Source: Flavobacteriales bacterium
Lineage (GTDB): Bacteria > Bacteroidota > Bacteroidia > Flavobacteriales_D > UBA2798
Reading direction: 5' to 3'
Assembly: GCA_037443205.1 (NCBI GenBank)
Contig: JBBIOU010000002.1
Location: 118,849-182,848 of the forward strand
Length of the DNA stretch: 64,000 nucleotides
Part shown: one piece after another, positions 18,764-56,559 of the stretch
Position numbering within the stretch: position 1 is the stretch's first letter
How the letters are laid out: every line of letters starts with the position of its first letter
Made by a program: the position numbers and the translations under genes
The notes under the pieces: generated by a model
Databases searched by the model: none
The model's input: the letters and a program-made list of their open reading frames with translations, nothing else
Told to the model about the DNA's origin: nothing

Positions 18764-18784
18764 GATGTTATAAATTTATTATTG

Positions 18785-20026: not shown

Positions 20027-20029
20027 TTT

Positions 20030-22579
20030 TTAAAATCTTAATCCAAGCATTAAAAAATAAGTAGTTCCTAAATGGTAGGTATATTTAGGAGGAAATTTAT
20101 TTACATCATTAGGGTCGAAACGCAGCTGTTCAAAACCTCCGGTGGCAAATGTTTTATTGTTAAGTAAATTATTTACTGAGATATTCAAATTTAAAAAATA
20201 TTGCTTTATTTTCCAGGATTTTCCGGCATAAAAATCTATTATATAAGCATTGCTTAATTTTTCCTGGCGTATGTTTTGGTTCCATTGCGGGTCTGTAGTA
20301 ACAAAATTAGCAAGTGCCTCTTCGGTTCTTCTGTCGGGGTTTGGTTCCAGGTAAATATTTGCATAGTAATTAAAATTTGCTCCTGCAAACCAGAATTTTT
20401 TTCCGCTGTATTTAACTCCTGCTGATGCAGCTGTTTGCGGCATATTTCCTAAGCGATAATTTTTTATATATACGGTTCTGTTTGCAAGTATTTCAGACGA
20501 ATTATCGCGGGTAATGGTTGCTGTTGGTCTGGAATTAAACAGGTGTTGCCCGTGCGCAAATACACCTATCAAAGTAAGCTGCTGGGTTAGGTTACCTTCT
20601 ATGCCTAATTCAATGCCTGTATGCAAAAAATCTACACCGTTCATAGTATAGTTTACTAAGTTTCTGTATTCTTCATGAAAGAAACTGCGGCTCCATAATT
20701 GGTCATTTATCTGAGTATAATACAGCGTAGCTCTGGTTTTAATGTTGGTATAGCGGGCAATATAATTTATATCGCCCGAAAGAATTTTTTCACTGGTTAA
20801 TCCGTCAATTAGGTTATCACGTGTACGCGGAGAAACGTAGGCTATACGAACTTGTGGCGGGCGCGTTAAATACATTCCGTTTATGGTAACATAATTACGG
20901 CCGTTTATTTTATAAGTAGCACCCATTTTTGCTCCATAATTCAAAAAGTTTTGTTTTTTGGAGGTTCCTGCCGAATTTTCCGGAAATTTGCCGTTTGCCC
21001 ATTCAGAAGTTCTCCAGAAAGCGGTTTGCGAAAGTTGAATGCCTGCATAAAACTCTAATTGTCCGATATTATATTCTAATTGCGAAAATGCTTCGTGTTG
21101 ATTTACCTGTATCGTATAATTATATCCAAATTTTTCGTTTTGTTTAATTATTTTATTGGGTGTACTTATATCGTTTTGTACTGCCGAACCATCCGAAGAA
21201 AGCTGCTCGGCAAATTGGTCAACATCCAACCAGTAATCGCCACCCAATAAATCATTTACTGTTTTAAAATATATACCTTGATGCTTAATACCGGTGTATC
21301 CGGCACTTAAATATAGCTTATCGTTTACTTTATTATTATAAATAATATTCCATCCTAATTGTTTCACATCACTGCGTTGCTCTTCTACAATATATTTAGA
21401 ACGCAAACCGGTAACATTGTTGCCGCTTATTCCGTTTGCATTAACCACAGTGTGTAAGTTATTGTAATTTGCATAATATAATTCATCCCAATTTATTTGT
21501 CTGGTATTTACATCGGTTTGCCAAAGTTCGGTAAGGCGTTGAGCTTCGGCCGGGTTGGTGAGAGCGTAATAACTGGGCAAATAACGATAATAATCTGGTC
21601 GGGGGTCTTTGGTATCATTCCAGTTCAGCGCTGTAATACCTCTTCGACCGAAATTATAATATAGGGATGATTGTAATTTAGATTTTTCGGATATTCTCCA
21701 TAAGTGTGTAAGCATAATAACCGGTGTATGATTTTTAGCTACACGGGCGCTGCGTTTTTTACCTTGTTGATAACCCCAAAAGGGATTGTAATAATTATTA
21801 CCTGCCAAATTGTAAGCCTCTTGTGTAGCAATTCCTTGCCGTGCTTGTGTTAATGGGGCTGCAAATACACTTAGGTTAATTGTATGATTTGTATTTATTT
21901 TTTTTTCAGCTGCTGCAAAATAGCTCCATGCTTCAAAATAAGTGCCTTCTACATAACCCTCATTGGCATAACGCATAGATCCAGAGAAACTAAAATTCCA
22001 GCCGTTTTTCATTTCTCCGGTGCTGGTGGTGTACATTACCCGATGATCGTAGCTTCGGTTTGATAAGGCATATGATATTTTATGCCCCTTTCGTATAGAT
22101 GAAGCACGGGTATTGATATTGGTATAACCTCCCGGACCGCCAAAATTAATTCTGCATGCACTTATGCCTGTGTGTATTTCCATATAACGGGTAACATCAT
22201 TTAAGCCTCCCCATGATGACCAACTGGCCCAACCCGTTTCTAAGTCATTAACTTTTACTCCGTTTATCATTATTATATTGTTTTCCGGATCATATCCACG
22301 GATACGAAAACGGGCATTACCAAAATTAAATCCGGCTGTTGATGTAAAAATATCGCGTGATGATTGCAATATGCCTGATATATCTTGTGCGTCTAAATCC
22401 GATTCGGCTTCTCCGGAATTTGAACTAAAAATTGGTATGCGAACCACATTGAGTGAGTCTTCTTTTAAAAGTGCATTTTGTGAGGTATCGTTTTCTTTAA
22501 ATGTAGTTTCAATTTTGTTTTGTGCACAAACATTAAAGTAAAATATCAATAAAAAAATAAGCGCTAAAAATTTATTCAT
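20030..22579 (-). CDS. TonB-dependent outer-membrane transporter (no SusD-like partner)
   Basis: The protein is 849 aa with a signal peptide. The plug region reads DISGILQSSRDIF..FRIRGYD..IMINGVKVNDLE. The rest has a long beta-barrel-like alternating pattern and ends in the terminal aromatic ..MLGLRF. Confidence 0.88.
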   Translation of the reverse strand: MNKFLALIFLLIFYFNVCAQNKIETTFKENDTSQNALLKEDSLNVVRIPIFSSNSGEAESDLDAQDISGILQSSRDIFTSTAGFNFGNARFRIRGYDPENNIIMINGVKVNDLETGWASWSSWGGLNDVTRYMEIHTGISACRINFGGPGGYTNINTRASSIRKGHKISYALSNRSYDHRVMYTTSTGEMKNGWNFSFSGSMRYANEGYVEGTYFEAWSYFAAAEKKINTNHTINLSVFAAPLTQARQGIATQEAYNLAGNNYYNPFWGYQQGKKRSARVAKNHTPVIMLTHLWRISEKSKLQSSLYYNFGRRGITALNWNDTKDPRPDYYRYLPSYYALTNPAEAQRLTELWQTDVNTRQINWDELYYANYNNLHTVVNANGISGNNVTGLRSKYIVEEQRSDVKQLGWNIIYNNKVNDKLYLSAGYTGIKHQGIYFKTVNDLLGGDYWLDVDQFAEQLSSDGSAVQNDISTPNKIIKQNEKFGYNYTIQVNQHEAFSQLEYNIGQLEFYAGIQLSQTAFWRTSEWANGKFPENSAGTSKKQNFLNYGAKMGATYKINGRNYVTINGMYLTRPPQVRIAYVSPRTRDNLIDGLTSEKILSGDINYIARYTNIKTRATLYYTQINDQLWSRSFFHEEYRNLVNYTMNGVDFLHTGIELGIEGNLTQQLTLIGVFAHGQHLFNSRPTATITRDNSSEILANRTVYIKNYRLGNMPQTAASAGVKYSGKKFWFAGANFNYYANIYLEPNPDRRTEEALANFVTTDPQWNQNIRQEKLSNAYIIDFYAGKSWKIKQYFLNLNISVNNLLNNKTFATGGFEQLRFDPNDVNKFPPKYTYHLGTTYFLMLGLRF

Positions 22580-22857
22580 AAATTATTATCAGCGCACAAA
22601 AGTATGATATTTATACTGATTATACTTTAAGGTTAAATACTTTTAATAATAAATTAATCCTTATTAAACAACAAAAAGTTTAACAAGATAGTTAAATTTT
22701 TTGCGAGACATATTAAAACATCTTTTATATTAAATCTGATTATGAGCCTATGCTAAGGATAATTGTAAAACTCCGGAATTAAATATAATTTAATAACTAA
22801 ATTTATTTATTGCGGAAAATAATTTGCGTAATTTGCATAAAATGTAAAATTGAGGTT

Positions 22858-23901
22858 ATGAGAAGTTTCGTGCTGTTAATATTTATGTGTTCTTACTTTT
22901 TGCAAGTATCGGCACAATTAGATAAAAACAAAAAGTACTTGGTTAGCTGTATAGCTTTTTATAATGTAGAAAATCTTTATGACACCATTGACTCACCAGG
23001 TGTTAACGACCATGAATTTACCCCCAACGGTCCCAACCAATGGAATACACTTAAATATTATAAAAAATTAGACCGTTTAGCAGAAGTAATTTCGCAGTTA
23101 GGAAGTGAAGCCACCCCTGACGGGCCGGCTGTAATCGGCTTATGCGAAGTTGAGAATCTTAATGTATTGGAAGACTTGGTTAAAACAGAAAAACTTAAAA
23201 AAAACAATTACCAAATAGTACACTATGACGGGCCTGACCATAGAGGAGTAGATGTGGCTTTACTCTACAATCCTAAATATTTTAAAGCTACCAACAGCAA
23301 ATCTTATACTCTTAAAATAAATGACGACACCACTTTTAAAACCAGAGATCAGTTGGTTGTATCGGGTATTTTTGACGGTGAACCCATGCATTTTATTGTT
23401 GCACACTGGCCATCGCGCAGGGGAGGACAAAAAGCCAGTAATCCCAAAAGAATAGAAGCTGGTAAACTGGGTCGAAAAATTATTGACTCTTTAATTGCTT
23501 TAAACGCTAACGCTAAAATTGCTTATATGGGCGATTTAAATGATGACCCGGTAAATGCAAGTGTAAAAGTGCACATTAATACTTCGGCCAAAATTGATAA
23601 AACTACGGGCAATAAATTATTTAATCCTATGGAAGAGCTTTTTAAAAAAGGTATAGGAACACTTGCCTGGAAAGACTCCTGGAATTTATTTGACCAAATA
23701 ATTATTACAGCACCTTTTGTTAAACAAACTTATGCTGACTGGCAATTTTACAAAGCCAAAGTTTTTAATAAGGATTTTGTTAAACAAGACGAGGGTAATT
23801 TTAAAGGGTATCCTTTTCGTACTTTTGCAGGCGGGCAATATACAGGCGGATACAGCGATCATTTTGCCGTTTATATATTACTAATGAAAGAAAAAAAATA
23901 A
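22858..23901 (+). CDS. Secreted endonuclease/exonuclease/phosphatase (EEP) family nuclease
   Basis: The signal peptide is MRSFVLLIFMCSYFLQVSAQ. I prefer the ATG at 22858 over the TTG at 22810 used by the track. The EEP motifs GLCEVEN, VAHWPSRRGG, GDLNDDP and YSDHFAV are present. Confidence 0.85.
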   Translation: MRSFVLLIFMCSYFLQVSAQLDKNKKYLVSCIAFYNVENLYDTIDSPGVNDHEFTPNGPNQWNTLKYYKKLDRLAEVISQLGSEATPDGPAVIGLCEVENLNVLEDLVKTEKLKKNNYQIVHYDGPDHRGVDVALLYNPKYFKATNSKSYTLKINDDTTFKTRDQLVVSGIFDGEPMHFIVAHWPSRRGGQKASNPKRIEAGKLGRKIIDSLIALNANAKIAYMGDLNDDPVNASVKVHINTSAKIDKTTGNKLFNPMEELFKKGIGTLAWKDSWNLFDQIIITAPFVKQTYADWQFYKAKVFNKDFVKQDEGNFKGYPFRTFAGGQYTGGYSDHFAVYILLMKEKK

Positions 23902-26081
23902 TGTTATTTAGAAACCTCTTTACTTCTCTCTTTACACTCATAACAGTTTGCGCCTTATCGCAAGCTGTATTGCCCACCGCACATTCTTTTGACGGAAGTC
24001 CCTTGCCTGTGGGCTGGACATTAAACCTGAATATTGCACAAAACGGAATAACTTATACCTCCGGCAGCGATTCTTCACCCTCATGCCGTTTGGATGCCAG
24101 CGGAGAATACGTGCAAATACACTATGCTACACAAGCAGGAGCATTATCCTATTACATTCGTTCAACCGGTATAAACCCCGTAGTAGCTAACGGAACTCTT
24201 TTTCACCTGCAGGAATCAGTAAACGGTATAACATGGACTAACATTCGACAATTTGATGTAAGTAATTTAACCGGTAGTTTTGTTCAGTTTACCGATCAGC
24301 CCGCTGCAGCTTCCAGATACATTCGTTTTTATTATACCAACAAAGCCTCCGGAAGCAACATAGCACTCGATCAGATTCTTTTGCAGGAAGCTGCTCCCGG
24401 CCCAAATGCCGCTATAAAAGTTAAATATAACACACAAACTCTTCTCAACGGAGGAACAGTTTTTATTGGCAATAGTTCTACTCATATTTTTACAATTGAA
24501 AATAACGGCACCGCACAAACCCTAAATATAAACTCATACAACATTAGTGGTTTACATGCATCTGATTTTATCATCAGTGGCATGCCCGCTAACATCAGCC
24601 CCCAGACAAACGCCAATTTTACCCTTACTTTTACTGCCGGTGCTAACGGATCGCGTTACTCTACCATTACCATTAACAACAACGATAGCCAAAACGACCC
24701 ATTTATAATTTATATCAATGCAATTGGAGGGACTTTGGCCAGCGAGCCTCTTACACAACCATCCAACCTTTCGTTTACAAATATCAAAGCATATACATTT
24801 AACGTAAATTTTAATGCCGCTTCACCTTCACCCGATGGATACCTTGTGTTATGGAAAAAAGATTTACCGGTTACAGAAATACCCACAGACGGAGTTTCAT
24901 ACAATATTGGCGACCAAATTGGTCAGGCAAAAGTTGCCTATGTTGGTAATGCAAATACATTTATACCCAGACACGTGGTTGCCAACAGCAATTATTATTT
25001 TAAAATATTTAGTTATAATGGTTCATCAGGATTTGAAAACTATTTAACTGCCAATGCTTTGTCGGGACAGGTTTTAAGCAGCGGACAAAACATCGGTAAT
25101 TATTACAACGGTATTAACAGAAATAATCTGAATCTGGTAAGTCAATTAACTAATAAAATCAATCCACACACACAAATATATTATGGCAGCTATAGCAACA
25201 CTATTGTTGATAATTTTGAAAGCTACGACACTTCGCAAGGCAGAAAAGTTTTGCCTTGTTTATATTCTAATTACCGCTACGTTTATAACGAACCTTTTGT
25301 TTATGATACGATGAGCAGAGAACATGTTTTTGCTCACAGTTGGTTTCCTACAAATCCTGCCCAGAATAATATAGAGTATTCCGATTTATTTAATCTTTTT
25401 CCTGCTAAACTACAAAATGTTAATATGGTAAGAAGCAACTATCCGTTTGGAATAGTAGTTAATACAACCTATCAATATATGGATGGTAAACTTGGTCAGG
25501 ATATTAACGGAAATACAGTTTATGAACCCGCCAATCATATTAAAGGAAATGTTGCCCGTGCAATATTTTACATGCTTACCTGCTATAACGGAACCGGTGG
25601 CGCATGGAATTTACCAACTTTTCAAAATCAACAAATACTTAAAACCTGGCACCAGCAAGACCCTCCAGACAACTATGAAATAGCCCGCAATGAATATATT
25701 TATGCTTTACAAGGAAACCGAAACCCTTTTATTGACAGTGCAGTTTTTGCCTGCTTTATTGACTTTAGTACCATGAGCAAAATCACTAATCCTCCCGCAA
25801 GTTGCTTGCTGCTAAACTCCCCCGAAATAACTAAGGAATCTTATTTTCATATTTATCCTAACCCGAGCAGCGATATATTAAATATATACACAGCCAACAT
25901 AAATGCTTATCAAAATACCGAATGTGTTATATTTGATATTTACGGAAAACTAATTTATACAACAAATATAACGAATCAACATACCTTGTTGGATTTAAGT
26001 TTAATCCCCGAAGGATTGTACATTTTACAGTTAGCGTCTGACCATTTGCTGCATGCAGAAAAAATAATAATTGCGCGCTAA
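23901..26081 (+). CDS. Endonuclease I family nuclease with N-terminal jelly-roll, Ig-like (choice-of-anchor-D-like) and Fn3-like domains and a type-A T9SS C-terminal domain
   Basis: The endonuclease I motifs are SREHVFAHSWFP, SDLFNLFPA..N..RSNYPFG, KGNVARAIFYM and GNRNPFID. The C-terminus IYPNPSSDILNIY..IFDIYGKLIY..PEGLYILQL is a Por_Secre_tail. The start overlaps the upstream stop (TAATG). Confidence 0.88.
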   Translation: MLFRNLFTSLFTLITVCALSQAVLPTAHSFDGSPLPVGWTLNLNIAQNGITYTSGSDSSPSCRLDASGEYVQIHYATQAGALSYYIRSTGINPVVANGTLFHLQESVNGITWTNIRQFDVSNLTGSFVQFTDQPAAASRYIRFYYTNKASGSNIALDQILLQEAAPGPNAAIKVKYNTQTLLNGGTVFIGNSSTHIFTIENNGTAQTLNINSYNISGLHASDFIISGMPANISPQTNANFTLTFTAGANGSRYSTITINNNDSQNDPFIIYINAIGGTLASEPLTQPSNLSFTNIKAYTFNVNFNAASPSPDGYLVLWKKDLPVTEIPTDGVSYNIGDQIGQAKVAYVGNANTFIPRHVVANSNYYFKIFSYNGSSGFENYLTANALSGQVLSSGQNIGNYYNGINRNNLNLVSQLTNKINPHTQIYYGSYSNTIVDNFESYDTSQGRKVLPCLYSNYRYVYNEPFVYDTMSREHVFAHSWFPTNPAQNNIEYSDLFNLFPAKLQNVNMVRSNYPFGIVVNTTYQYMDGKLGQDINGNTVYEPANHIKGNVARAIFYMLTCYNGTGGAWNLPTFQNQQILKTWHQQDPPDNYEIARNEYIYALQGNRNPFIDSAVFACFIDFSTMSKITNPPASCLLLNSPEITKESYFHIYPNPSSDILNIYTANINAYQNTECVIFDIYGKLIYTTNITNQHTLLDLSLIPEGLYILQLASDHLLHAEKIIIAR

Positions 26082-26237: not shown

Positions 26238-27014
26238 ATGAAGCTTAGATCTATTATCATAGATGATGAAGAACCCGCAAGGGAAAATTTAAAAATTTTG
26301 CTGGAGGATTTTTGTCCCGAAATACAACTGATTGGAATGGCCGATAATATTGTTTCAGCAAAAAAAATGATTCAGGAATTAAAGCCCGAAGTTATATTTT
26401 TAGATATAAGAATGCCTTCGGGACTGGAAGGATTTGAATTGCTCGAAAGTTTACCCGACAAAAATTTTATGGTAGTTTTTGTTACAGCCTTTAAAGAATA
26501 TGCCATTAAAGCGTTTAATGCGAATGCGATACACTACATTTTAAAACCCATTGACATAGAAGAATTAAAAACAGCCGTTAAAAAAATACTTCAATGGAAA
26601 GAAAATATAAAAACAAACCCCGAAAACCTGAATATATATCTTGATGCACTAAAAAATTTATCAGAAAATTTAATTCATAAAAAAAACACCGGAAAAATTA
26701 CCATCAGCCATTCCAAAGGAATAAAAATTGTAAATGACGATGATATAATACACATCAATGCAGACAGCAATTATTCAGTAATACATTTTAAGGACGGCTC
26801 GCATTTTTTTGACACGCGCACCCTGGGAGTTTATGAAGAAATATTAAACCCGAACAAGTTTTTCCGAACTCATAAATCACACATCATTAATTTAAATGAG
26901 TTAGTCGAATATCAAACCGAACACTCTCCCATAGCCATACTGAAAAACGGACATAAAATACCTGTAGCACGCAACCGCATACAAGAATTTGTAGCCAAAA
27001 TCAAATCTTTATAG
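26238..27014 (+). CDS. LytTR-family response regulator (paralogue 1)
   Basis: The receiver domain reads IIIDDE..VIFLDIRMP..ILKP. The C-terminal LytTR domain reads FFRTHKSHIINLNEL..IPVARN. Confidence 0.92.
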   Translation: MKLRSIIIDDEEPARENLKILLEDFCPEIQLIGMADNIVSAKKMIQELKPEVIFLDIRMPSGLEGFELLESLPDKNFMVVFVTAFKEYAIKAFNANAIHYILKPIDIEELKTAVKKILQWKENIKTNPENLNIYLDALKNLSENLIHKKNTGKITISHSKGIKIVNDDDIIHINADSNYSVIHFKDGSHFFDTRTLGVYEEILNPNKFFRTHKSHIINLNELVEYQTEHSPIAILKNGHKIPVARNRIQEFVAKIKSL

Positions 27015-27020
27015 CAAACA

Positions 27021-27051
27021 GTTCGCTCAAAAAAACATACATTTCGCTAAA
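27021..27051 (+). promoter_or_regulatory. Imperfect direct repeat with 21-bp period; candidate LytTR operator
   Basis: GTTCGCTCAAA starts at about 27021 and TTTCGCTAAAC at about 27042, with 8 of 11 positions identical. Start-to-start distance is 21 bp. The pair lies 60-90 bp upstream of the ATG at 27113. Confidence 0.3.
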
Positions 27052-27112
27052 CGGCATATTTATTCTTAAATAAAGAGCGTATTATTGCTTAAATTAAAAA
27101 ACCCATTACCTT

Positions 27113-27871
27113 ATGAAACTAAAATCGATAGTGGTAGATGACGAGTATAATGCTCGCAACAACCTGAAAATGATTCTGGAAGATTTTTGCCCCGAAGTAG
27201 AAGTAGTGGGCATTGCCGAATCAACTGATAAAGCAAGGTCTTTAATCAAACAATTATCGCCCGATTTAGTTTTTTTAGATATCAAAATGCCTAAAGAAGA
27301 TGGCTTTGCATTTTTAGAAAGCATGCCCGACCGAAATTTTTCGGTTGTATTTACTACCGCACATAGCGAATTTGCACTGAAAGCTTTTAAAGCCAACGCA
27401 TTAGATTATATCGAAAAACCTATCAATATTGAAGACTTAAAAAATGCAGTAAATAAAGTAATGCTCTATCATGTAGGAAAATTAAACATAGATAACGACT
27501 TACCTGCTGCCGGTAAAGAAGAAAAAAATACCCAAATAAGTAAAGACCGAATATCACTCGCAACACGAGACGGTTTTACCATGGTTAAAAACGAAGAAAT
27601 AATTCATTTAGAAGCAAGCGATAATTACACCATGATATACATGACCGATAACAGGAGATTTTTAAGCTGTAAAAACATAAAAGTGTATGAAGAATCGCTA
27701 AATAAAGAAGTGTTTTTCAGGGTACATAAATCACATATTATTAATATTGCACATCATTTAAAAGGTTTTACACGAAACGAAGGAAATATTGCATTACTTT
27801 CAAACAATAAACAAATACCGGTTGCAAGAAGAAAGTTGCAAGACTTTCTGCAGCGTATTAACACCATCTAA
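27113..27871 (+). CDS. LytTR-family response regulator (paralogue 2)
   Basis: The receiver domain reads IVVDDE..LVFLDIKMP..IEKP. The LytTR domain reads FFRVHKSHIINIAH..IPVARR. It is clearly paralogous to the upstream gene along its whole length. Confidence 0.92.
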   Translation: MKLKSIVVDDEYNARNNLKMILEDFCPEVEVVGIAESTDKARSLIKQLSPDLVFLDIKMPKEDGFAFLESMPDRNFSVVFTTAHSEFALKAFKANALDYIEKPINIEDLKNAVNKVMLYHVGKLNIDNDLPAAGKEEKNTQISKDRISLATRDGFTMVKNEEIIHLEASDNYTMIYMTDNRRFLSCKNIKVYEESLNKEVFFRVHKSHIINIAHHLKGFTRNEGNIALLSNNKQIPVARRKLQDFLQRINTI

Positions 27872-27872
27872 T

Positions 27873-30800
27873 ATGCTGAAATACCTCCTTAAAAGCCTGA
27901 CCATATCAGGCTTTTTACTTTTAACTTTCTGCATACGGGCACAACAATATACCTTTATTAATTTTTCTACCGAACACGGTTTACCACAATCGCAGGTAAC
28001 AGCCCTGTGCCAGGATAACAGCGGTTATTTATGGTTTGCTACCCTGGGTGGTGTTAGCCGGTTTGACGGCATAGAGTTTTTAAATTTCTCTAATAAAGAC
28101 GGTTTAATAGACAATCAAAGCTACTCTTTATTCATTGACAGCAAACAAAAAATCTACATAGGCTCTGTAGGCGGATACAGCGTATATGACGGCAAAGGCT
28201 TTACTCCTGTTAAATTACCCCAACTCTACAATACTTCAAACATTTCGGCTTTTACCGAAGACGATTTAAAAAACATCTGGTTTGTAACCGAAAATATGGG
28301 CGTAGGAAAAATAAGCCCCAACGGTCAAATATCTTTTTATGACGAAAAAAAAGGATTAAACAGTAATACTCGAACCATATACTTTGACAATAATAAACAA
28401 TTATGGGTAGGCACCCGTTATGGATTATTTTTATTTGATAAAAACAAAGACCATTTTAGCCCGGTAAATATAAACGGAGTGCCCGACCGAAACATCAGCT
28501 ATATTACCCGGGATAAATACAATAATATATGGGTGGCCACCGTTGACGAAGGGGTTTATGTAAAACACCATAACACCTGGATAAACTTTGACGAAACAAA
28601 CGGATTAATCAGTAATCAAATCAGAAGTATTACCGTATGCTCCGATTCATCCATTTGGTTTTCATCCCGCTTAGGCATCAGCATATTTAAAAACAATTCT
28701 TTCAATAACATAAATACCGATAAAGGATTAACTCACTCAAACATCAGATATATAGGCGAAGACAACGAAAAAAATATTTGGATATGTACAGACGGTAAAG
28801 GAATATACAAATTTGCCGGGGAAGCATTTGTTACATATACGGTTAAAACCGGTTTAAGCAGCGATTTTGTAATGTCGCTGGTTGAAGATGCTGATAAAAA
28901 CCTTTGGTTTTCCACATACGACAAAGGCGTATGCAAATACAATGGCACAAATATTATATGTTTTGACGACTCAAAATATTTATCTAACAATACTGTTTGG
29001 ACAAGCACCAGAGATGCCGAAAATAATTTATGGTTTGGAACATCTATAGGCCTAAACAAATATGACGGTAAAAAATTTTATATTTATACCGATGATGACG
29101 GCCTGTTATCCAATAAAATCACCGCACTTTATGCAGATAATGAAAACTTATGGATTGGCACCCAAAACGGATTGAACAGATTTTATAAAGGAACCTTTAG
29201 CTCCTGTCTTAATCAAAACGGGCCTAATCCTGACAACATCAGAAATATTTATAAAGATAAACAAGGTGTTTTATGGCTGGCATCTTCTAACGGTTTGTAC
29301 GCTTACAACGGCAAAACATTTAAACAATACAAACCCTTTCCCGAAAATTCTGACAACACCCTGTATTGCATTAAACCCGCATTAAAACAAGGCTTATGGG
29401 TTGGAACTAAATCAGGATTATTTTATTTTAACAACTCCCGGTTTGAACCCGTAGTATTTAGCGATGGAGTTAGCTCTAATTATATTAATTTTCTACTGAA
29501 CGACTATATTTATTTATGGATTGGTACCAATAACGGCATCTACAGATTAAATCAACAAAAATATTTTGAAGAAGCCATCATAGAGATTAAAAACTTTACC
29601 CGCGATGAAGGTGTACCGGGAATGGAAACAAATATGAATGCAGCTTATAAAGACTCTCGCGGGTATTTATGGTTTGGCACAGACAAAGGATTGGTGCGCT
29701 TTAATGCAGATAAGGAAAAAAAATACGATGCTTTGATAAAACCCTATATTCATATTGATGATGTGAGATTATACTTTGAAAAAGCCGACTGGAAAAATTA
29801 CACGGATGTATTTGATGAGAACACAGGACTACCTCTTGACCCGAAAGTTAATTATAAAAAAAACCATTTTACTTTTTACTATACAGGCATCAGCCATACC
29901 AATCCGAAAAAATTAAAATACCGTTTTAAATTAGAAGGCTTCGACCCCGACTGGTCGCCCGAAACCGATGCACGCTTTATAACCTATTCTAACCTGCCTT
30001 ATGGCAGTTATACCTTTATGGTAAAAGCAAAAAATGAACAAGGCATTTGGTCGCATACCGCAACATTTGCTTTTACAATTAAAGCCCCGTTTTGGCTAAC
30101 CTGGTGGTTTATTGTTATGTGTTCAATACTTGTATTATTTCTGATTATCTTTTTATACAACATACGGCTAAAAGAAATTAAAAGAAAAAACGAACGGCAA
30201 CAACTTATCTATCAATCGCGCCTGCTCGAATTAGAACAACAAGCATTAAACGCCAGTATGAACAGGCATTTTATATTTAATGCGCTTAATTCCATACAAT
30301 ATTACATCAATAAACAAGACCGCTTAGAAGCCAATCGCTATTTAACCAGTTTTGCCAAGTTAATCCGAAAAAATCTGGATAGTTCTGCATCGGGTCAAAT
30401 GGTTTCGCTGTCAGAAGAACTTGAACGCCTGGAACTATACATATCCCTCGAAAACATGCGTTTTAAAAATAAATTTACCTACCAAATTAATATACAAAAT
30501 GATATTGATACCCAAAACGTGAAAATACCACCCATGCTTTTACAACCTTATGTAGAAAACAGCATTTGGCATGGCATATTACCCCTCGAACAACCCGGAC
30601 ACATTCAGCTTAACATAAATTCGTTACCCGATGGTTCTATCAAATTTGCGATTGAAGATAATGGCATTGGAATAGAAACCAGCCTGATGGAAAAAAACAA
30701 AACCAAAAACAATCACATCTCCAGAGGTATTGAAATTACCAGTGGCCGGCTGGTAGTATTGAAAAAAATATTAAACGAAGAAATAATAATTAATGGCCCG

Positions 30801-30890
30801 TTTGAACTTAAAAATAACCTTGGTTTGGCTTGTGGCACAAGAGTAGAGATTATTATCCCTCAACCAAAACGACCTTTCCCAAAGATTTAA
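27873..30890 (+). CDS. Sensor histidine kinase: periplasmic two-component-regulator beta-propeller repeats plus Y_Y_Y-like domain, one TM helix, LytS/YehU-type kinase core
   Basis: I prefer the ATG at 27873 (MLKYLLKSLTISGFLLLTFCIRAQ) over the track start at 27789; it lies 1 nt after the paralogue-2 stop. Many repeats follow the pattern G(L)..N.I..I..D..G.lW(fv)GT..Gl..y. A TM segment reads WWFIVMCSILVLFLIIFLY. The kinase core reads MNRHFIFNALNSIQYYI, followed by PPMLLQPYVENSIWHGI and DNGIGI. Confidence 0.9.
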   Translation: MLKYLLKSLTISGFLLLTFCIRAQQYTFINFSTEHGLPQSQVTALCQDNSGYLWFATLGGVSRFDGIEFLNFSNKDGLIDNQSYSLFIDSKQKIYIGSVGGYSVYDGKGFTPVKLPQLYNTSNISAFTEDDLKNIWFVTENMGVGKISPNGQISFYDEKKGLNSNTRTIYFDNNKQLWVGTRYGLFLFDKNKDHFSPVNINGVPDRNISYITRDKYNNIWVATVDEGVYVKHHNTWINFDETNGLISNQIRSITVCSDSSIWFSSRLGISIFKNNSFNNINTDKGLTHSNIRYIGEDNEKNIWICTDGKGIYKFAGEAFVTYTVKTGLSSDFVMSLVEDADKNLWFSTYDKGVCKYNGTNIICFDDSKYLSNNTVWTSTRDAENNLWFGTSIGLNKYDGKKFYIYTDDDGLLSNKITALYADNENLWIGTQNGLNRFYKGTFSSCLNQNGPNPDNIRNIYKDKQGVLWLASSNGLYAYNGKTFKQYKPFPENSDNTLYCIKPALKQGLWVGTKSGLFYFNNSRFEPVVFSDGVSSNYINFLLNDYIYLWIGTNNGIYRLNQQKYFEEAIIEIKNFTRDEGVPGMETNMNAAYKDSRGYLWFGTDKGLVRFNADKEKKYDALIKPYIHIDDVRLYFEKADWKNYTDVFDENTGLPLDPKVNYKKNHFTFYYTGISHTNPKKLKYRFKLEGFDPDWSPETDARFITYSNLPYGSYTFMVKAKNEQGIWSHTATFAFTIKAPFWLTWWFIVMCSILVLFLIIFLYNIRLKEIKRKNERQQLIYQSRLLELEQQALNASMNRHFIFNALNSIQYYINKQDRLEANRYLTSFAKLIRKNLDSSASGQMVSLSEELERLELYISLENMRFKNKFTYQINIQNDIDTQNVKIPPMLLQPYVENSIWHGILPLEQPGHIQLNINSLPDGSIKFAIEDNGIGIETSLMEKNKTKNNHISRGIEITSGRLVVLKKILNEEIIINGPFELKNNLGLACGTRVEIIIPQPKRPFPKI

Positions 30891-35732: not shown

Positions 35733-35740
35733 CAAAGGTA
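35733..35740 (-). promoter_or_regulatory. -7 box TACCTTTG (extended TACCTTTGCGC) upstream of lepA
   Basis: The minus-strand sequence TACCTTTGCGC lies about 16 nt upstream of the lepA ATG. The same 11-mer occurs upstream of typA at about 59307-59317. Confidence 0.45.
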
Positions 35741-35806: not shown

Positions 35807-38800
35807 TTAAATTTTAACGCCTATCACGCATACGTCATCAATTTGTTCTAAATCGCCTTTCCATTCTTCAAACATAAAATCGAGCATTTGTTTTTGTATA
35901 TGCATGGGTTTTTCGTGATTATCCAACAACAATTGCCTGAAGTTGCTGTATTTTAATTTTTTTCCTTTAGGGCCGCCAAATTGATCGGCATAACCATCAC
36001 TAAATAAATATAGTTTATCGTTGGCGTATAGTTGTAATTCTTTATTGGTAAATTTAAATTCGTTTTCGCCCACAAAATTGCCTATGGGTTGTTTATCGGC
36101 ATTTATTTCTAATACTTCATTATTGCGTATTATAAAAATAGGATTATTGGCTCCTGCGTATTCCAGGGTATTTTTTTGCAAATCAATGCAGCAAACGGAT
36201 ATATCCATGCCATCGCGTATTTTGGAATCTTCGGCACGTTGTTTTAAGGTCTTTGAAATAATTTTGTTTAACTGATTAAGTATTTCTGCGGGTTGGGTAA
36301 TATGGTATTCATTTACTATTTGATTCAATCCGTTAAATCCTATGATGCTCATAAATGCGCCCGGCACTCCATGTCCGGTGCAATCAACAACGGCAAATAA
36401 TATTTTATTGTCTTTTCGTTCAATCCAATAAAAGTCACCGCTCACAATATCTTTGGGTTTATAAAGCACAAAGGCATTTTTTAGGTGCGATGTTACTACT
36501 TCTTCGGGGGGCAAAATGGCTTGTTGTATTCGTTTAGCGTAAATGATGCTGTCGGTAATATGTTTGTTTTTTTCTTCGATAATTTCTTTTTGTTTTACTA
36601 CCTCGGCTGTTCTTTCGCGCACTTTTTCTTCCAGGTTTAAATAAAGCTTAGCATTTTCGAGCGCTATGCCAACCGATACAGATAGGTTTCTGAGTATATC
36701 TAAATGATACTCGGTGTAAGCGTTGGGTTGATAGCTTTGCACGGTAATAACTCCGATTATTTTTTCTTTGCTGTAAACCGGCAAATAAATAATGGATGAT
36801 GAATCTTTACCCGAAACGGCTTTTTTAATTCCTTTAAGATATTTGGAGTATTCTTCAAAATAATTATTGATGAATAATTCTTGCTGGTTTTTAAAACAGA
36901 TTACAGCCAGTCTTTCATCATCAATATTATAAGAAAAGTCTTCCATGCGAACGCCATTCTCTATAAAACCCGGCATTAGTATTGAGCGCGAATCTTCATC
37001 ATAAATACCAATACCAAACATGGTTGCATCCATCAGATTATTTACGTTTTCATATACTTTTTCTACGATGCTTTCTATAGTCAGACATGAGGTAATATCT
37101 TTTCCTATTTGGCTTAACAGGCGTGTATTTTGATAGGCTTTTTCTATTTCTGCCGTGCGTTCGGCAACTCGCTCTTCCATTTTTTCGTAGAGCGATGCGT
37201 TTTCGAGCGCACTGGCAATATATAATGAAAGGTTACGAATAACATTCAGGTGGTATTCATTATAGGCGTTTTTACGGAAACTTTGTACTGTAATTACACC
37301 AATGCATTTATTTTTAGTGATTAGGGGCAAGTAAATCATAGACTCGGGCATTTCGCCAGCCTGTGCCGTGTAGTTTTTTTGGACATACCTGATGTATTCC
37401 TCTTCCCAGTTATTGATTATTATTTCTTGTTTATTTAAGAAACATCGTGTGGCAATTTTATCATCATTCAAAGAAATATTAAAAGGGTTTAATTTTACGC
37501 CTTTTTCTATGGCTCCTTCATAATACAAATCATTATTATCGGGTCGGTATATGGCTATTCCAAATGTAGTAGCATCCATCAGGTTATTTACGTTGCTGTA
37601 TGCATTTTGTATAATTTCTTCGACTGAAAGTAAGGCAGAAATTTCTTTACCTATTTTACTGAGTAGTTTAGTGTTTTCGTATGTTTTTTGTATTTCTTCT
37701 TTTTGTTTTACTACTTCGATCGTACGTTCTTCTATAGTGTGTTCCAAACCTTTCAGTATAGCAATGTTTTCGAGTGCTATGGCTGTATAGGATGCAAGTG
37801 TTCGTAAAATATCTAAATGATATGTCGTATAGGCATTTTTTTCAAATGCCTGTGCAGAAATAACTCCTATAATTTTTTCGCCTACCATCATGGGGCAAAA
37901 AATAAGCGATTCGGGTAAATCGCCCTTTACCACTACAATTTTATTGGTATATTTTTTATATTCGTTTTGATGGTCATTAATAAATATTTCTTTTTTATGT
38001 GTAACACACCATACCGAATAATTATCAATGTCGTTCATTGAGACGGTTATTGGTGGCAAACGTTGTCCTTTTTCTATGGTATATTTGTACTCAATTGTAT
38101 TTTCTTCGGAGTTGTATATTCTGATGGAGAAACAGGTTGCATCCATCAGTTCGTTTACATTTTTTTGCAGCTTTTCAAAAATGTCTTCCAAATCGTGCGA
38201 TGATATGATTTCTTGTCCTATTTCGCTTAATAAACGGGTGTTATTATATGTTTTTTCTATTTCTTCTTTTTGTTTGATTACCTCTTTGGTGCGATTAACA
38301 ACTTCTTGTTCTACGCTTTTATACAGGTTTGCGTTTTCTATGGCTGTTGAGGCATATAAGGCAAGGTTTCTGAGTATATTGAGATGATATTCGTTATAAG
38401 CATTTTTATTAAAACTCTGTACGGAAATGGTGCCTATAACTTTATTTTTAGCCATTAACGGAATGTATAATATTGACTCGGGTGATTCGCCAATTATGGC
38501 GTCAGAGTCAGTGTGGCAATAATTTTTGTATTCTTTTTGATAATCGTTAATATGTATTTCGCGGGCATTTTTTACACACCAAACGGCTAATTTGTCATTA
38601 TCATCCAATGAAAAAGAAAAATCAGGAAGTTTTTCACCCTTTTCCATTGCTCCTTTTATTTCCAGGGTGTTATATTCTTCGTTAATAATTCCTACGCCTA
38701 TGATAGATGCATCCATGAGGTCGTTGACTTTGTCGTATATTTTTTCGATAACTTTTTGAATGGATAGGTCTGAGGTTAGTTCTCTTCCTATTTGGCTTAG

Positions 38801-41047
38801 CAATTGAGTGTTTTCGTATGTTTTCTGTATTTCTTCTTTTTGTTTGATTACTTCGCGTGTGCGTTCGGCAACTTTCTCTTCAAGATTTTCTACCAGATTT
38901 GCGTTTTCGAGGGCAATGGCAGTGTATGCGCCCAAGGTTTTTAAAATGTCTACATGATAGGGTGTATATGCAAATTTTTTAAAGCTTTGAACGGTAATAA
39001 CTCCTAATATCCTTTCACCCATCATCATAGGGAAAAAGATAAGTGAGTGGGGCATTTCGCCCGAAGGCACTACAATTTTTTTTGTGTATTGATGGTATTC
39101 ATTCAGGTTATCGTTTATAAATATTACTTGTTTATTCTTTACACACCAAACCGAATAGTTATCATCATCAGACATTGGAACGAAAATAGGCTCTTCATAT
39201 ATTTGGTCGTTTTCTATCTCAAATTTATATTCAATACAATCTTTGTCGGGGTGGTAAATTCTGACTCCAAAACATTCAGCCGGCATTAATTTATTTACAT
39301 TTTCGTAGAGTTTGTAAAAAATATCTTTCAACCGTAAGTTGGTAGTAAGCTGTTGCCCTATTTCGCTGAGTAATCTTGTGTTTTCAATATTTTTTTCTAT
39401 TTCTTCTTTTTGCTTTAAAATTACCGAGGTTCTTTCGTTAACCAGCGATTCCATTTTTTCGTAGAGGGTAGCATTTTCCAGTGCAATTGCAGCATAGTTT
39501 GCTAGGTTTTTCAGGTAGTTTAAATGGTAATCGCTATAAGCATTTACAGAAAAACTTTGGGCTGTAATTACGCCTATTTTTTTATCTTTTACTTTCAGCG
39601 GCAGGTAAATCAGTGCAGCAACTGTTTTGCCTACTATGGGTGGTTTATATTTTACTACATAATTGTAAATTTCGCTTTCAAAATTGTTTATCAATATTTC
39701 TTTATCTTGATTAAAGCATATACATGCCAGTCGGGTATTGTCTGTCAGGTCGTATCGGCTTCCTGATAAAACTTCATTGTTTTCAATATATCCCGGAAAA
39801 ACCAAGCTGTTATCTTGTTCGTTGTATATCCCTATACCAAAGCCCTCTGCGGCTATAATACCGGATAAACTGTCATAGACTATTCGATTAATTTTTTCAA
39901 CTGACAGGGATGAAATTATTTTACGTCCGATTTCGCTCAGTTTTAAAATATCGTTGTAATAGTTTTCTAATTCGCGGTTTTTGCGGGTTAGCAATTCTTT
40001 TTCTTTCTCCACTTGTGCCATGTGCATTTGCATTTCATGGCTTTTAATTTTTTGTTGTTGCTTTTGTCCGAAAAAAGCTTCTTTGTAATCGTAATATTTT
40101 TTATAATGGTATACAAATTTGTTTATCTCTTGTTGTTGTTCGTAATAAGCAGATAAGGATAAATGTGTTTTATATGCTATATCATTGGCACTGATTTCTT
40201 CGGACAGCACAAGTGCTTTTTCAAGATTATCTTTTGCTTTATTAAGATGTTTGTGATGTAAATATAGTTCTCCCAGGTGTAATAATGATTCTGCTTCTCC
40301 GGCTTTAAAATTCATTTCTCTGCGCAACTCGAGCGATTGCAGATAATGTTGTTGTGATTTTTCAAATTCATTTAATGCTTTGTATGCTGTTCCTAAACCG
40401 TCAAGGGCATAAGACACCACTTGTTTTATACCTAGTTTTGAGGCTATTTCCAAACTTTGGTTGTTATATTCAACTGTTTTATGGTAATTGCCTATGTTAG
40501 AATTGGCTGTGCCCAGACCATCTAAGATTCTAACCATTAAATTTTCGTCATGGATTTGTTCGGCCAGGTGCAGCGCTTCGTTTAAAGTAGCAATAGATTT
40601 TTCGTTTTCGCCCATCGTGTATTGTATGGTTCCTATTGCATTTAATGCGGCTGCTTTTTTAGAAGGATTATTTATTTCATTGGCTAAGTTATAATTTTCG
40701 TATGCATATTTTAGCGCCTTGTCATAATCAGATAAAAAATAGAACACACAAAATATATTATAAAGCACATCTGCTTCTTTTTCTTTATCGTTAAGTTCCT
40801 GTAATAATATTTGTGCATCTAAAGAAAATTTTAAAGATTGATCATAATTACCCGGCCAAATATTACAGGCTCCTTTATTTGCCAGAGCATAAGCTATGCC
40901 TTTTTTATAATTTAATTGTTGGCTTTGTGTTAATGCCTCTTCTGCAAGTTTAATGCCTTCGGCAGGCTTGGTCCTGTTTATGTTCCATGCTTCAGCATTT
41001 AGCTTATCTATTTGTGCAATTATATTAATTTGAGCATCGGCTTGCAT
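35807..41047 (-). CDS. Giant cytoplasmic signalling protein: N-terminal TPR repeats, six tandem GAF-like modules with coiled-coil linkers, C-terminal PP2C/SpoIIE phosphatase
   Basis: The protein is 1746 aa. Six modules of about 190 aa each start with ..ERT.E(V)IKQKEEIEKTYENT.LLS.IG.. and end with ..IGVI(T)VQSF.KNAY..YHL.IL..L..Y.AIALENA.LY..LE. The C-terminus reads YAKRIQQAILP..SGDFYWIE..FAVVDCTGHGVPGAFMS..LFSDGYADQFGG. There is no signal peptide or TM segment. Confidence 0.9.
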   Translation of the reverse strand: MQADAQINIIAQIDKLNAEAWNINRTKPAEGIKLAEEALTQSQQLNYKKGIAYALANKGACNIWPGNYDQSLKFSLDAQILLQELNDKEKEADVLYNIFCVFYFLSDYDKALKYAYENYNLANEINNPSKKAAALNAIGTIQYTMGENEKSIATLNEALHLAEQIHDENLMVRILDGLGTANSNIGNYHKTVEYNNQSLEIASKLGIKQVVSYALDGLGTAYKALNEFEKSQQHYLQSLELRREMNFKAGEAESLLHLGELYLHHKHLNKAKDNLEKALVLSEEISANDIAYKTHLSLSAYYEQQQEINKFVYHYKKYYDYKEAFFGQKQQQKIKSHEMQMHMAQVEKEKELLTRKNRELENYYNDILKLSEIGRKIISSLSVEKINRIVYDSLSGIIAAEGFGIGIYNEQDNSLVFPGYIENNEVLSGSRYDLTDNTRLACICFNQDKEILINNFESEIYNYVVKYKPPIVGKTVAALIYLPLKVKDKKIGVITAQSFSVNAYSDYHLNYLKNLANYAAIALENATLYEKMESLVNERTSVILKQKEEIEKNIENTRLLSEIGQQLTTNLRLKDIFYKLYENVNKLMPAECFGVRIYHPDKDCIEYKFEIENDQIYEEPIFVPMSDDDNYSVWCVKNKQVIFINDNLNEYHQYTKKIVVPSGEMPHSLIFFPMMMGERILGVITVQSFKKFAYTPYHVDILKTLGAYTAIALENANLVENLEEKVAERTREVIKQKEEIQKTYENTQLLSQIGRELTSDLSIQKVIEKIYDKVNDLMDASIIGVGIINEEYNTLEIKGAMEKGEKLPDFSFSLDDNDKLAVWCVKNAREIHINDYQKEYKNYCHTDSDAIIGESPESILYIPLMAKNKVIGTISVQSFNKNAYNEYHLNILRNLALYASTAIENANLYKSVEQEVVNRTKEVIKQKEEIEKTYNNTRLLSEIGQEIISSHDLEDIFEKLQKNVNELMDATCFSIRIYNSEENTIEYKYTIEKGQRLPPITVSMNDIDNYSVWCVTHKKEIFINDHQNEYKKYTNKIVVVKGDLPESLIFCPMMVGEKIIGVISAQAFEKNAYTTYHLDILRTLASYTAIALENIAILKGLEHTIEERTIEVVKQKEEIQKTYENTKLLSKIGKEISALLSVEEIIQNAYSNVNNLMDATTFGIAIYRPDNNDLYYEGAIEKGVKLNPFNISLNDDKIATRCFLNKQEIIINNWEEEYIRYVQKNYTAQAGEMPESMIYLPLITKNKCIGVITVQSFRKNAYNEYHLNVIRNLSLYIASALENASLYEKMEERVAERTAEIEKAYQNTRLLSQIGKDITSCLTIESIVEKVYENVNNLMDATMFGIGIYDEDSRSILMPGFIENGVRMEDFSYNIDDERLAVICFKNQQELFINNYFEEYSKYLKGIKKAVSGKDSSSIIYLPVYSKEKIIGVITVQSYQPNAYTEYHLDILRNLSVSVGIALENAKLYLNLEEKVRERTAEVVKQKEIIEEKNKHITDSIIYAKRIQQAILPPEEVVTSHLKNAFVLYKPKDIVSGDFYWIERKDNKILFAVVDCTGHGVPGAFMSIIGFNGLNQIVNEYHITQPAEILNQLNKIISKTLKQRAEDSKIRDGMDISVCCIDLQKNTLEYAGANNPIFIIRNNEVLEINADKQPIGNFVGENEFKFTNKELQLYANDKLYLFSDGYADQFGGPKGKKLKYSNFRQLLLDNHEKPMHIQKQMLDFMFEEWKGDLEQIDDVCVIGVKI
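36600..40030 (-). repeat. Six in-frame tandem coding repeats of about 565 bp (the GAF modules)
   Basis: The ALEN-encoding string GC(G/A)TTTTC(G/C)AG(C/G/T)GC recurs on the plus strand near 36655, 37200, 37765, 38335, 38905 and 39475. Boundaries are approximate. Confidence 0.8.
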
Positions 41048-41076: not shown

Positions 41077-41442
41077 ATGCTTAGGGGGCAAAAAGTAAAT
41101 TATTTTTGTGTTATGGATTTAGAAACCGAACAACGCTGGCAAAAAGTGCAATTGTATTTAAAAGAACTGACCGGAAGTACTCCTGATATTACGGCAGCCG
41201 TATTTTTAATTGGTGTTCAGGAACTTGGTAAAGGCTATAAAAAATTTACTAAAGATAAAAAACTGGATTTAATTCATATTGGCATTTGTACTGTACTTGA
41301 ACCTTATGGTTTTTATAAGTATATTGGAAAAGACAGTGATGGATGGCCACATTTTGAAAACATAAAAAAATTGCCGCCCTTAGAAGAACGGCAACAACAA
41401 TTACTGCTTAAACAAGCTATTGCAGATTATTTCGGTTATTGA
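41077..41442 (+). CDS. Hypothetical small cytoplasmic protein
   Basis: The protein is 121 aa, or 109 aa if the ATG at 41113 (MDLETEQRW..) is the start. It is divergent from the giant GAF gene, only 30 bp from that gene's start. Confidence 0.55.
   Translation: MLRGQKVNYFCVMDLETEQRWQKVQLYLKELTGSTPDITAAVFLIGVQELGKGYKKFTKDKKLDLIHIGICTVLEPYGFYKYIGKDSDGWPHFENIKKLPPLEERQQQLLLKQAIADYFGY

Positions 41443-53352: not shown

Positions 53353-56559
<3,207 letters not shown>

Follow-up and report, generated by a model that had tools for sequence, protein, structure and literature searches.

The 64-kb stretch of Flavobacteriales DNA analyzed here (the window) carries at 35807-41047, on the minus strand, a single open reading frame (ORF) that runs from ATG to stop and encodes the multi-GAF phosphatase of this study, a protein of 1746 aa (the query). 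The identical 1746-aa protein was found on 15 contigs from independent Joint Genome Institute (JGI), Logan and NCBI assemblies. This showed that its repeat structure is not an assembly artefact. Contigs of the source genome come from JGI 3300044960 and 3300044940, from SRR11582161 and from the NCBI copy. The gene and its parts were assigned as follows.

35807-41047, minus strand: whole phosphatase gene, 1746 aa and stop codon, with a TPR array, six GAF modules and a SiaA-type PP2C domain (translation, Pfam, NCBIfam).
40043-41047, minus strand: TPR array, aa 1-335, about seven repeats (15 helices, aa 2-304; AlphaFold2 [AF2] model and TPR_12).
39473-40042, minus strand: module 1, class D, aa 336-525, a coiled-coil lead-in without ERT, then GAF (alignment, hidden Markov model [HMM] and clustering; AF2 GAF at aa 383-505).
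38903-39472, minus strand: module 2, class B, aa 526-715, signaling helix (S-helix; E538-R539-T540) and GAF, 60% identical to module 4.
38333-38902, minus strand: module 3, class A, aa 716-905, S-helix (ERT 728-730) and GAF, part of the di-GAF unit missing in homologue P0004.
37766-38332, minus strand: module 4, class B, aa 906-1094, S-helix (NRT 918-920) and GAF, the second half of that indel unit.
37199-37765, minus strand: module 5, class A, aa 1095-1283, S-helix (ERT 1107-1109) and GAF (AF2 predicted local distance difference test score [pLDDT] 85).
36653-37198, minus strand: module 6, class C, aa 1284-1465, S-helix one heptad shorter (ERT 1296-1298) and GAF.
36413-36652, minus strand: final S-helix, lead-in helix and first PP2C motif, aa 1466-1545 (ERT 1478-1480; SGDFY at aa 1536-1540, with D1538).
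35810-36412, minus strand: PPM/PP2C (SpoIIE-type) catalytic domain, SiaA-like, aa 1546-1746 (SpoIIE profile, 6K4E match, Foldseek).

Pfam gave six stretches of GAF_2 (E = 2e-84), five of TPR_12 (E = 1.9e-20) and one of SpoIIE (PF07228) at aa 1546-1745, the last with 77.8 bits against a cutoff of 25. AF2 models were made of aa 1-715 (mean pLDDT 87) and aa 1095-1746 (mean pLDDT 85), both as monomers (predicted template modeling score [pTM] 0.46-0.52). The N-terminus formed 15 regular helices, or about seven TPRs, followed by a connecting helix of 72 residues (aa 308-379), which starts within the part assigned to aa 1-335. GAF folds, seen for modules 1, 2, 5 and 6, were linked by continuous helices of 56-66 residues, helices were predicted over aa 1446-1511, and a PP2C fold stood at the end. 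A first-pass annotation of this DNA had described a TPR array, six modules of about 190 aa that it took for GAF domains, and a terminal SpoIIE-type PP2C domain. The profiles and AF2 models bore out this layout, and the modules were GAF domains, the group of PF13185, PF13492 and PF01590, by profile score, by fold and by Foldseek matches. Its further claim that there is no transmembrane segment was also confirmed: no 19-residue Kyte-Doolittle window indicated one, the maximum mean being 1.56, within a GAF strand.

The modules ended in A[LI]EN motifs at aa 522, 712, 902, 1091, 1280 and 1462, with periods of 190, 190, 189, 189 and 182 aa, and shared the linker motif ERT.EV.KQKEEIEKTY.NT.LLS.IG. 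In the module alignment the motif was as first described. At the DNA level the modules appeared as direct repeats with a period of 567-570 nt. Their identity was only 60-77%, and the duplications are therefore old.

The PP2C domain was closest to that of SiaA. The last 273 residues, including the ERT helix, matched the SiaA crystal construct 6K4E with an E value of 1.9e-38 and 30% identity, and the next PDB sequence matches, SpoIIE and RssB, reached only 5e-7 to 2e-4. The same structure was the top Foldseek match of the PP2C model (target-normalized template modeling score [TMt] 0.89, root mean square deviation 2.6-3.0 Å). Against the NCBIfam SiaA model (NF038263) the query scored 224.6 bits over positions 385-656 of 658. 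The N-terminal halves of the two differ, and for this reason the score fell short of the equivalog cutoff, which is 700. The query thus has the output module of SiaA without being its orthologue.

SiaA (PA0172, of the SiaABCD system of Pseudomonas aeruginosa) and the query have in common the S-helix (LE.KV.ERT) with PP2C, the fold, the metal ligands and the Cys of the DCxGHG motif. The N-terminal sensor part of SiaA is membrane-bound, whereas the soluble query starts with a TPR array and six GAFs and has no siaBCD operon at its locus. The segment at aa 1466-1545 aligned with the N-terminal helix of the SiaA-PP2C crystal construct, and many of its positions were invariant in 33 orthologues. The PP2C-like domain of SiaA comprises residues 453-662 only, and its metal ligands are D474/C475, D534, D600 and D604 together with conserved aspartates (PMC7647112). 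Residues D1538, D1555, C1556, D1615, D1684, D1688 and D1737/D1738 of the query corresponded to D457, D474, C475, D534, D600, D604 and D653/654 of SiaA. D1538 sits just upstream of the catalytic domain, in 36413-36652, and the other ligands lie within 35810-36412. All, including the unusual Cys of DCxGHG, were invariant in the 33 orthologues. By its residues, the domain looks catalytically active.

A PP2C fold may also serve as a binding scaffold devoid of catalysis, as in the adaptor RssB of E. coli, and RssB-type folds were indeed among the structural matches of the query. Every metal-coordinating residue of SiaA is present in the query, however, and none is degenerate, a point on which the first-pass annotation had made its reading depend. 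The match to the catalytically active SiaA was also much stronger than that to RssB. We regarded a pseudo-phosphatase as very improbable, and rejected it on the invariance of the active site.

More than 200 homologues were recovered from a search of 5.8 billion proteins. All the named ones came from Bacteroidota metagenome-assembled genomes (Crocinitomicaceae, Flavobacteriales and Sphingobacteriaceae), where they were annotated merely as 'GAF domain-containing protein'. The first-pass label 'orphan' was apt in that no partner genes lie nearby, but not in a wider sense, since hundreds of homologues exist. A literature search on this family and on multi-GAF PP2Cs found nothing relevant.

To count modules, an HMM made from the six query modules was applied to the top 120 homologues. 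Two modules were found in 25 proteins, four in 40, six in 41, eight in 8 and twelve in 1, and six and four were thus the commonest numbers. Odd counts were found in nine proteins (three modules in one, five in four, seven in two and nine in two), at least six of which were truncated or lacked the TPR. The module profile was also run against 1.84 billion representative proteins, and gave 2796 proteins at E <= 1e-30 with arrays of up to 15 GAF stretches. The arrays reaching 15 belonged to unrelated proteins; the phosphatase family itself reaches 12. Six serial GAFs are therefore unremarkable in number, and with counts of 2, 4, 6, 8 and 12 among the homologues the query is not exceptional.

Two variants of the architecture were noted among the homologues. 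In P0085 the same TPR head with seven GAFs ended in HisKA/HATPase_c in place of PP2C, and the multi-GAF rod thus serves exchangeable outputs. In five others a PAS domain stood between the last GAF and PP2C.

Labeling the modules by their best match to the six query modules was too noisy. Instead, all 567 modules were clustered, and fell into four main classes (A, B, C and D). The order of classes was strict: D directly after the TPR, then B, then (A-B) and/or (A-C) pairs, or D-B-(A-B)n-(A-C)m. The architectures seen were DB, DBAB, DBAC, DBACAC, DBABAC (the query), DBACACAC, DBABABAC and DBABABACACAC. What is repeated in evolution is two GAF modules together, one of each alternating class, and not the single module, from which the first-pass annotation had set out in raising the age of the duplication. 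Within the query, the closest pairs were modules 2 and 4 (60%) and modules 3 and 5 (53%), and a 280-nt DNA repeat connected module 4 to module 2 at 71% identity.

Pairing of this kind is known from the tandem GAFs of the phosphodiesterases (PDEs) PDE2, PDE5 and PDE6 and of the cyanobacterial adenylyl cyclase CyaB2, which matched the GAF5-GAF6 model of the query with Foldseek E values of 1e-14 to 1e-15. There, too, the GAFs are paired, of two kinds, with a long helix between them. By sequence, the sole PDB match of module 2 was a PDE GAF (E = 6e-6). On the other hand, identity of the query to these proteins was only 13-16%, and no cyclic nucleotide-binding motif was recognized in it. Its pairs are iterated three times (up to six in the family), and its output is a phosphatase, not a phosphodiesterase or cyclase.

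The closest relative, P0004 (1365 aa), has four GAFs, which were 88%, 90%, 81% and 95% identical to query modules 1, 2, 5 and 6. Global alignment of the two proteins left one gap of 379 residues, query aa 732-1110, which takes out modules 3 and 4. Its two ends lay directly after ERT[R/I], each in one of a pair of equivalent B-to-A linkers, and so carry the mark of unequal recombination between like linkers. Such events necessarily shift the count by two. The family thus shifts its module number through in-register recombination within the conserved S-helices, two modules per step. The 379-aa indel is most simply read as a deletion in the P0004 lineage. Modules 3 and 4 were at most 65-71% identical to any other module, and the di-GAF unit itself is therefore old. 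The even-number rule may reflect mutational bias, functional constraint, or both.

The S-helix is recognized by 'ERT' in its central heptad, at positions c-d-e, and typically lies between a sensor and an output domain, PP2C being one example (PMC1592074). The query contained six [E/N]RT sites, at aa 538, 728, 918, 1107, 1296 and 1478, one at each junction after a GAF, and their R and T were invariant in 33 six-GAF orthologues. In the register anchored on ERT, the a/d positions were hydrophobic in 56-67% of cases and the other positions in 29-38%. By the definition of the S-helix, which asks for ERT in the middle heptad and for hydrophobic a/d positions along some five heptads, these linkers qualify. 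The linkers share these properties, and the place between domains, including that before PP2C, with the S-helix of Anantharaman, Balaji and Aravind (PMC1592074). They differ in that the S-helix usually occurs once or twice per protein, whereas the query has six in series, in two length classes one heptad apart.

Over the 567 modules, the linker was either full or exactly 7 residues shorter. Short linkers prevailed in class C (86/113) and were common in class B (67/158), and those of class A were mostly long (149/173). The only short linker of the query precedes module 6, and there the heptad register is kept. A coiled coil tolerates exact one-heptad indels if its phase must be kept. The 7-residue steps thus lend indirect support to a predicted parallel dimeric coiled coil.

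The linkers were conserved and the GAF centers had diverged, as the first-pass annotation had noticed within the query. Between classes B, A and C, identity was 0.44-0.49 in the linker and 0.25-0.33 in the GAF center. Within class B it was 0.52 and 0.53, the latter the most conserved center of the classes, with the signature residues NYSVWC, INDN and GDMP. Within class A it was 0.58 and 0.36. By this pattern a conserved site for a ligand or partner is best sought in class B, and class A GAFs may be variable or merely structural.

The GAF array as a whole could be mainly structural, a ligand-free dimerization rod or spacer that sets distance or valency, with sensing left to the TPR. No known ligand motif occurs in the GAF modules, the centers of class A are poorly conserved (0.36), and the number of modules differs between close relatives. 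There are also TPR-PP2C proteins without GAFs in SiaB/SiaC operons (see below), so that the GAFs are dispensable for basic function. Against a mere spacer, the center of class B is conserved at 0.53 with signature residues, which suggests a specific binding function, and a spacer needs neither an ERT helix at every junction nor strict heptad quantization. A fixed ruler is also hard to square with a family whose members have 2 to 12 modules. The heptad register is strictly kept between close relatives that are a whole di-GAF unit apart, which favors register-dependent signal transmission over a fixed-length ruler. A purely structural array was judged improbable.

The substrate was approached through the neighbors of related genes. 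SiaA dephosphorylates SiaC at T68, and SiaB is the opposing kinase. SiaC (Pfam PF09345) resembles anti-sigma antagonists in structure, and what the characterized SiaA controls is not a sigma factor but a diguanylate cyclase (PMC7647112). In the 64-kb window, Pfam on all ORFs of at least 100 aa and six-frame HMM and phmmer searches found no STAS, RsbW-type, SiaB, SiaC or sigma-factor gene, in agreement with the first-pass annotation for STAS, anti-sigma and sigma genes. A GGDEF gene was likewise missing from the window by Pfam ORF scans and HMM search.

In a degenerate-pattern scan, genomes and metagenomes each gave at least 600 PP2C genes of this subtype. Of the genome loci, 80 with names were retained, nearly all of them from Bacteroidota, and Bernardetia, Flammeovirga and Microscilla were among the carriers of related genes. 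The sensors on these related PP2Cs varied, being TPR only, Reg_prop/Y_Y_Y, receiver, or GAF/PAS. The neighbors of about 160 related PP2C loci were examined by clustering and by HMM searches (PF09345; PF19788/NF038262). Many loci that seemed to span query residues 5-1746 were plain TPR-PP2C genes. Only 8 true multi-GAF loci were recovered, and the sample of multi-GAF neighborhoods is accordingly small.

A SiaC (PF09345) or SiaB-family kinase gene lay directly beside the PP2C gene at seven loci (L050, L078, L079, L083, L087, L094 and L158). The scores were 121.7 bits for SiaC with PF09345 and 125-251 bits for SiaB with NF038262 (cutoff 85). L078 is a compact operon of SiaB, TPR-PP2C and SiaC, and in L083 four tandem TPR-PP2C paralogues lie beside SiaC and a doubled SiaB. 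At an eighth locus (L081) a SiaB-SiaC pair was found about 4.7 kb from the PP2C gene. The phospho-acceptor context Y-F-N-T/S-S-S-K was conserved in the neighboring SiaC proteins. The PP2C domains adjacent to SiaB/SiaC were 40-54% identical to that of the query (median of the set 51%), and shared a cluster with it, in which they lay interspersed. The TPR region of the query was 24-29% identical to that of the TPR-PP2C proteins beside SiaB/SiaC in L083.

SiaB-SiaC pairs were also found at two loci without an adjacent phosphatase (L088 and L091), which fits a hub served by unlinked phosphatases. A search for SiaC-family proteins gave 3032, many of them from Bacteroidota; no contig of the source samples was recognized among these hits. 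A literature search on SiaB/SiaC in Bacteroidota found nothing relevant; the 'SiaC' of Capnocytophaga is an unrelated sialidase.

Related PP2Cs were thus found beside SiaB/SiaC and never beside STAS, and the window holds neither. This made an unlinked SiaC-like protein the likeliest substrate. We hold a SiaC-type substrate to be probable, with modest confidence, and a STAS substrate to be unlikely. The STAS partner-switching role assumed in the first-pass annotation called for revision, since the PP2C is specifically SiaA-like and the related Bacteroidota loci adjoin SiaB/SiaC, not STAS/RsbW. Its interpretation as a whole stood in part, for the architecture, the catalytic residues and the lack of partner genes, and had to be revised for the class of substrate, the weight given to six GAFs and the unit of repetition.

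The classical partner switch would have a STAS anti-sigma-factor antagonist of the RsbV/SpoIIAA type, encoded elsewhere, dephosphorylated by the query, so that a sigma factor is freed from an RsbW-type kinase. This is the commonest documented role of SpoIIE/RsbU-type PP2Cs, and the tandem-GAF phosphatase RsbZ works so (PMC12143880). In L085 and L050, STAS-like ORFs stand no more than 10 kb from related PP2Cs, and in L022 the STAS-like sequence is one domain of a large ORF. In L005, an extracytoplasmic function (ECF) sigma gene lies divergently upstream of an 8-GAF orthologue, with a SpoIIAA-like gene 3 kb downstream. None of the STAS genes was adjacent to a related PP2C, and these three loci were the only ones with STAS-like ORFs, in a search that used single sequences as queries and had less sensitivity than the HMM searches for SiaB/SiaC. 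With the same limit on the STAS queries, STAS/RsbW was adjacent in 0 of the approximately 160 loci, against seven for SiaB/SiaC. The PP2C domain is, moreover, far closer to SiaA than to SpoIIE or RssB, and the window has no STAS, RsbW or sigma gene. We considered a classical partner switch improbable for the query.

For the likeness to SiaA, the neighborhoods add that Bacteroidota relatives of the query PP2C adjoin genes of the SiaB/SiaC families. RsbZ of Clostridioides difficile provides a second comparison. It resembles the query in its N-terminal tandem GAFs, helical linker and PPM phosphatase, and RsbZ, RsbU and RsbP resemble it in the proposed control through a dimeric coiled coil acting on PP2C switch helices (PMC12143880). 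RsbZ has two GAFs, targets the STAS protein RsbV and belongs to the sigma-B pathway. The query, in contrast, has six GAFs of alternating classes, an ERT S-helix at each junction, a TPR head and a SiaA-type catalytic domain.

Our overall explanation, which we favor slightly more than we doubt, is that the query is a soluble cytoplasmic TPR/six-GAF Ser/Thr phosphatase with a SiaA-type domain, probably acting on a SiaC-type substrate. Dimeric coiled-coil linkers pass sensor signals to PP2C switch helices in RsbU and related PPM phosphatases, a mechanism that its authors extended to the tandem-GAF RsbZ (PMC12143880), and the SiaA PP2C domain crystallizes as a dimer (PMC7647112). By analogy with these, we infer a parallel dimer with a continuous spine. 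The phosphatase would most likely work as a parallel homodimer, as SiaA, RsbU and tandem-GAF proteins suggest. One register-locked helical spine would run from the TPR array through the six S-helix and GAF modules to the helix that packs on the PP2C switch element. Protein partners might enter at the TPR, and small ligands at some GAFs, class B being the best candidate. These inputs would alter the packing or register of the helices, and the phosphatase dimer would be switched on or off. The substrate would be a SiaC-family (DUF1987) protein in its phosphorylated form, with its gene elsewhere in the genome and a SiaB-family kinase to phosphorylate it anew. The query would then be one of several unlinked sensor phosphatases that feed a single SiaB/SiaC partner switch.

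Several points weigh against this explanation. The 64-kb window has no SiaB or SiaC gene, and among the 8 true multi-GAF loci a SiaB/SiaC pair lay within 10 kb in one (L094), not in the same operon. That the source genome encodes SiaB and SiaC elsewhere is what we infer, the search having reached the 64-kb window only. STAS genes do exist in some related Bacteroidota loci. That the PP2C is closest to SiaA may in part be due to sampling, since the PDB has few partner-switch PP2C domains. A ligand-binding motif was recognized in none of the GAF modules, and even counts need not be a functional requirement, since recombination between like linkers could yield them as a by-product. The dimeric spine is drawn by analogy, and the AF2 models, with their pTM of 0.46-0.52, are monomeric.

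At loci with SiaB/SiaC several other arrangements were noted. In L083 (7359-18893), four ORFs of about 705 aa, confirmed or presumed TPR-PP2C (the last alone was scanned with Pfam), and a 445-aa PP2C ORF form a tandem row. Next come a convergent SiaC gene and the SiaB kinase, doubled and fused, with 361 aa. The layout of L050 is similar; it has two SiaC genes, and its SiaB, too, is doubled. In L087 (4574-8698), L088 (7419-11459) and a JGI 3300075153 contig, SiaB-SiaC is followed by a fusion of TerB, ABC ATPase and ABC-2 permease of about 1020-1030 aa, behind which ORFs of some 300 aa and some 150-175 aa are conserved. On one such contig a GAF-PAS-SpoIIE gene and CheR/CheB genes lie just upstream. 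The TerB-ABC transporter fusion could be the output of the SiaB/SiaC switch in Bacteroidota. Two further genes recurred at SiaA-type PP2C genes: a YfiR/HmsC-like DUF4154 gene beside them in 9/80 genome loci (e.g. L022, 7566-8102), and a TPR protein of about 297 aa in 12/80.

A bolder form of the explanation would regard these phosphatases as stackable, register-locked integrators, in which an ERT helix and its GAF make up one gate, and which act as unlinked inputs to a Bacteroidota SiaB/SiaC switch whose output is not a diguanylate cyclase. Gates on the coiled-coil spine would be gained or lost in twos, through in-register recombination inside the ERT helices. The candidate output would be the TerB-ABC fusion found directly after SiaB-SiaC in several loci. 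We put this form forward as speculative, and on balance do not expect it to hold.

There is nothing extraordinary in the domains of the query, which are all familiar, or in its being one of a populous family. All the parts are of known kinds; what is new is the iterated, alternating and heptad-quantized architecture, its evolution by di-GAF units and the probable SiaC link. With 2-12 modules, two classes in strict alternation, heptad-quantized linkers and two close relatives that are exactly one di-GAF unit apart, the family constitutes a natural experiment on how signals travel along coiled-coil linkers. GAF-regulated PP2C and SiaABC signaling are both known, and neither has been studied in Bacteroidota. 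The SiaC link, if true, would unite many 'orphan' sensor phosphatases of Bacteroidota in a single pathway, and would raise the question of what SiaC controls there.

The phosphatase gene stands alone. The gene lepA follows 90 bp downstream on the same strand, with an element TACCTTTG at 35733-35740 (minus strand), 17-24 nt upstream of its start codon, which fits the Bacteroidota -7 promoter motif TAnnTTTG. With such an element of its own, lepA is probably transcribed by itself, apart from the phosphatase gene. The adjacency of lepA is particular to this genome: the neighbors of the orthologues were unrelated, and no conserved neighborhood was found around them. On the other side, an ORF of 121 aa (41077-41442, plus strand) is divergent, 30 bp from the phosphatase start codon. 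It was called as a gene in three independent assemblies. It had no Pfam match, and was missing from the three orthologue neighborhoods examined (L004-L006). A scan for sigma-70 promoters and terminators, which does not cover Bacteroidota promoters, gave counts at the level of chance. An Rfam scan detected a single tRNA only.

Elsewhere, the window encodes sorting domains of the type IX secretion system (T9SS; CHU_C and Por_Secre_tail), and its GC content is about 35%. Taken with the names of the homologues, these features point to a source in Bacteroidota, probably in Flavobacteriales. At 26238-30890 (plus strand), a Reg_prop/Y_Y_Y/His_kinase sensor of about 1005-1033 aa comes after two LytTR-type response regulators in a row. 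A sensor of this Reg_prop/Y_Y_Y type occurs fused to a SiaA-type PP2C in L050. The region 17417-26081 has on the minus strand a T9SS-tailed carbohydrate-binding module (CBM) protein, a DUF5689 protein and a TonB-dependent-receptor-like protein. Divergent from these are an Exo_endo_phos_3 nuclease and a T9SS-tailed Endonuclease_1, and the region may be a locus for extracellular nucleic-acid degradation and uptake.

At 53353-56559, a LysR-family regulator gene overlaps head-to-head with that of a catalase-peroxidase (KatG-like, two peroxidase stretches), and the pair resembles an oxyR-katG pair. At 60958-63305 (minus strand), a MoxR-type AAA_3 ATPase is followed by a DUF58/vWA protein. These genes are the start of a Bat/MoxR-type operon, which is common in Bacteroidota.

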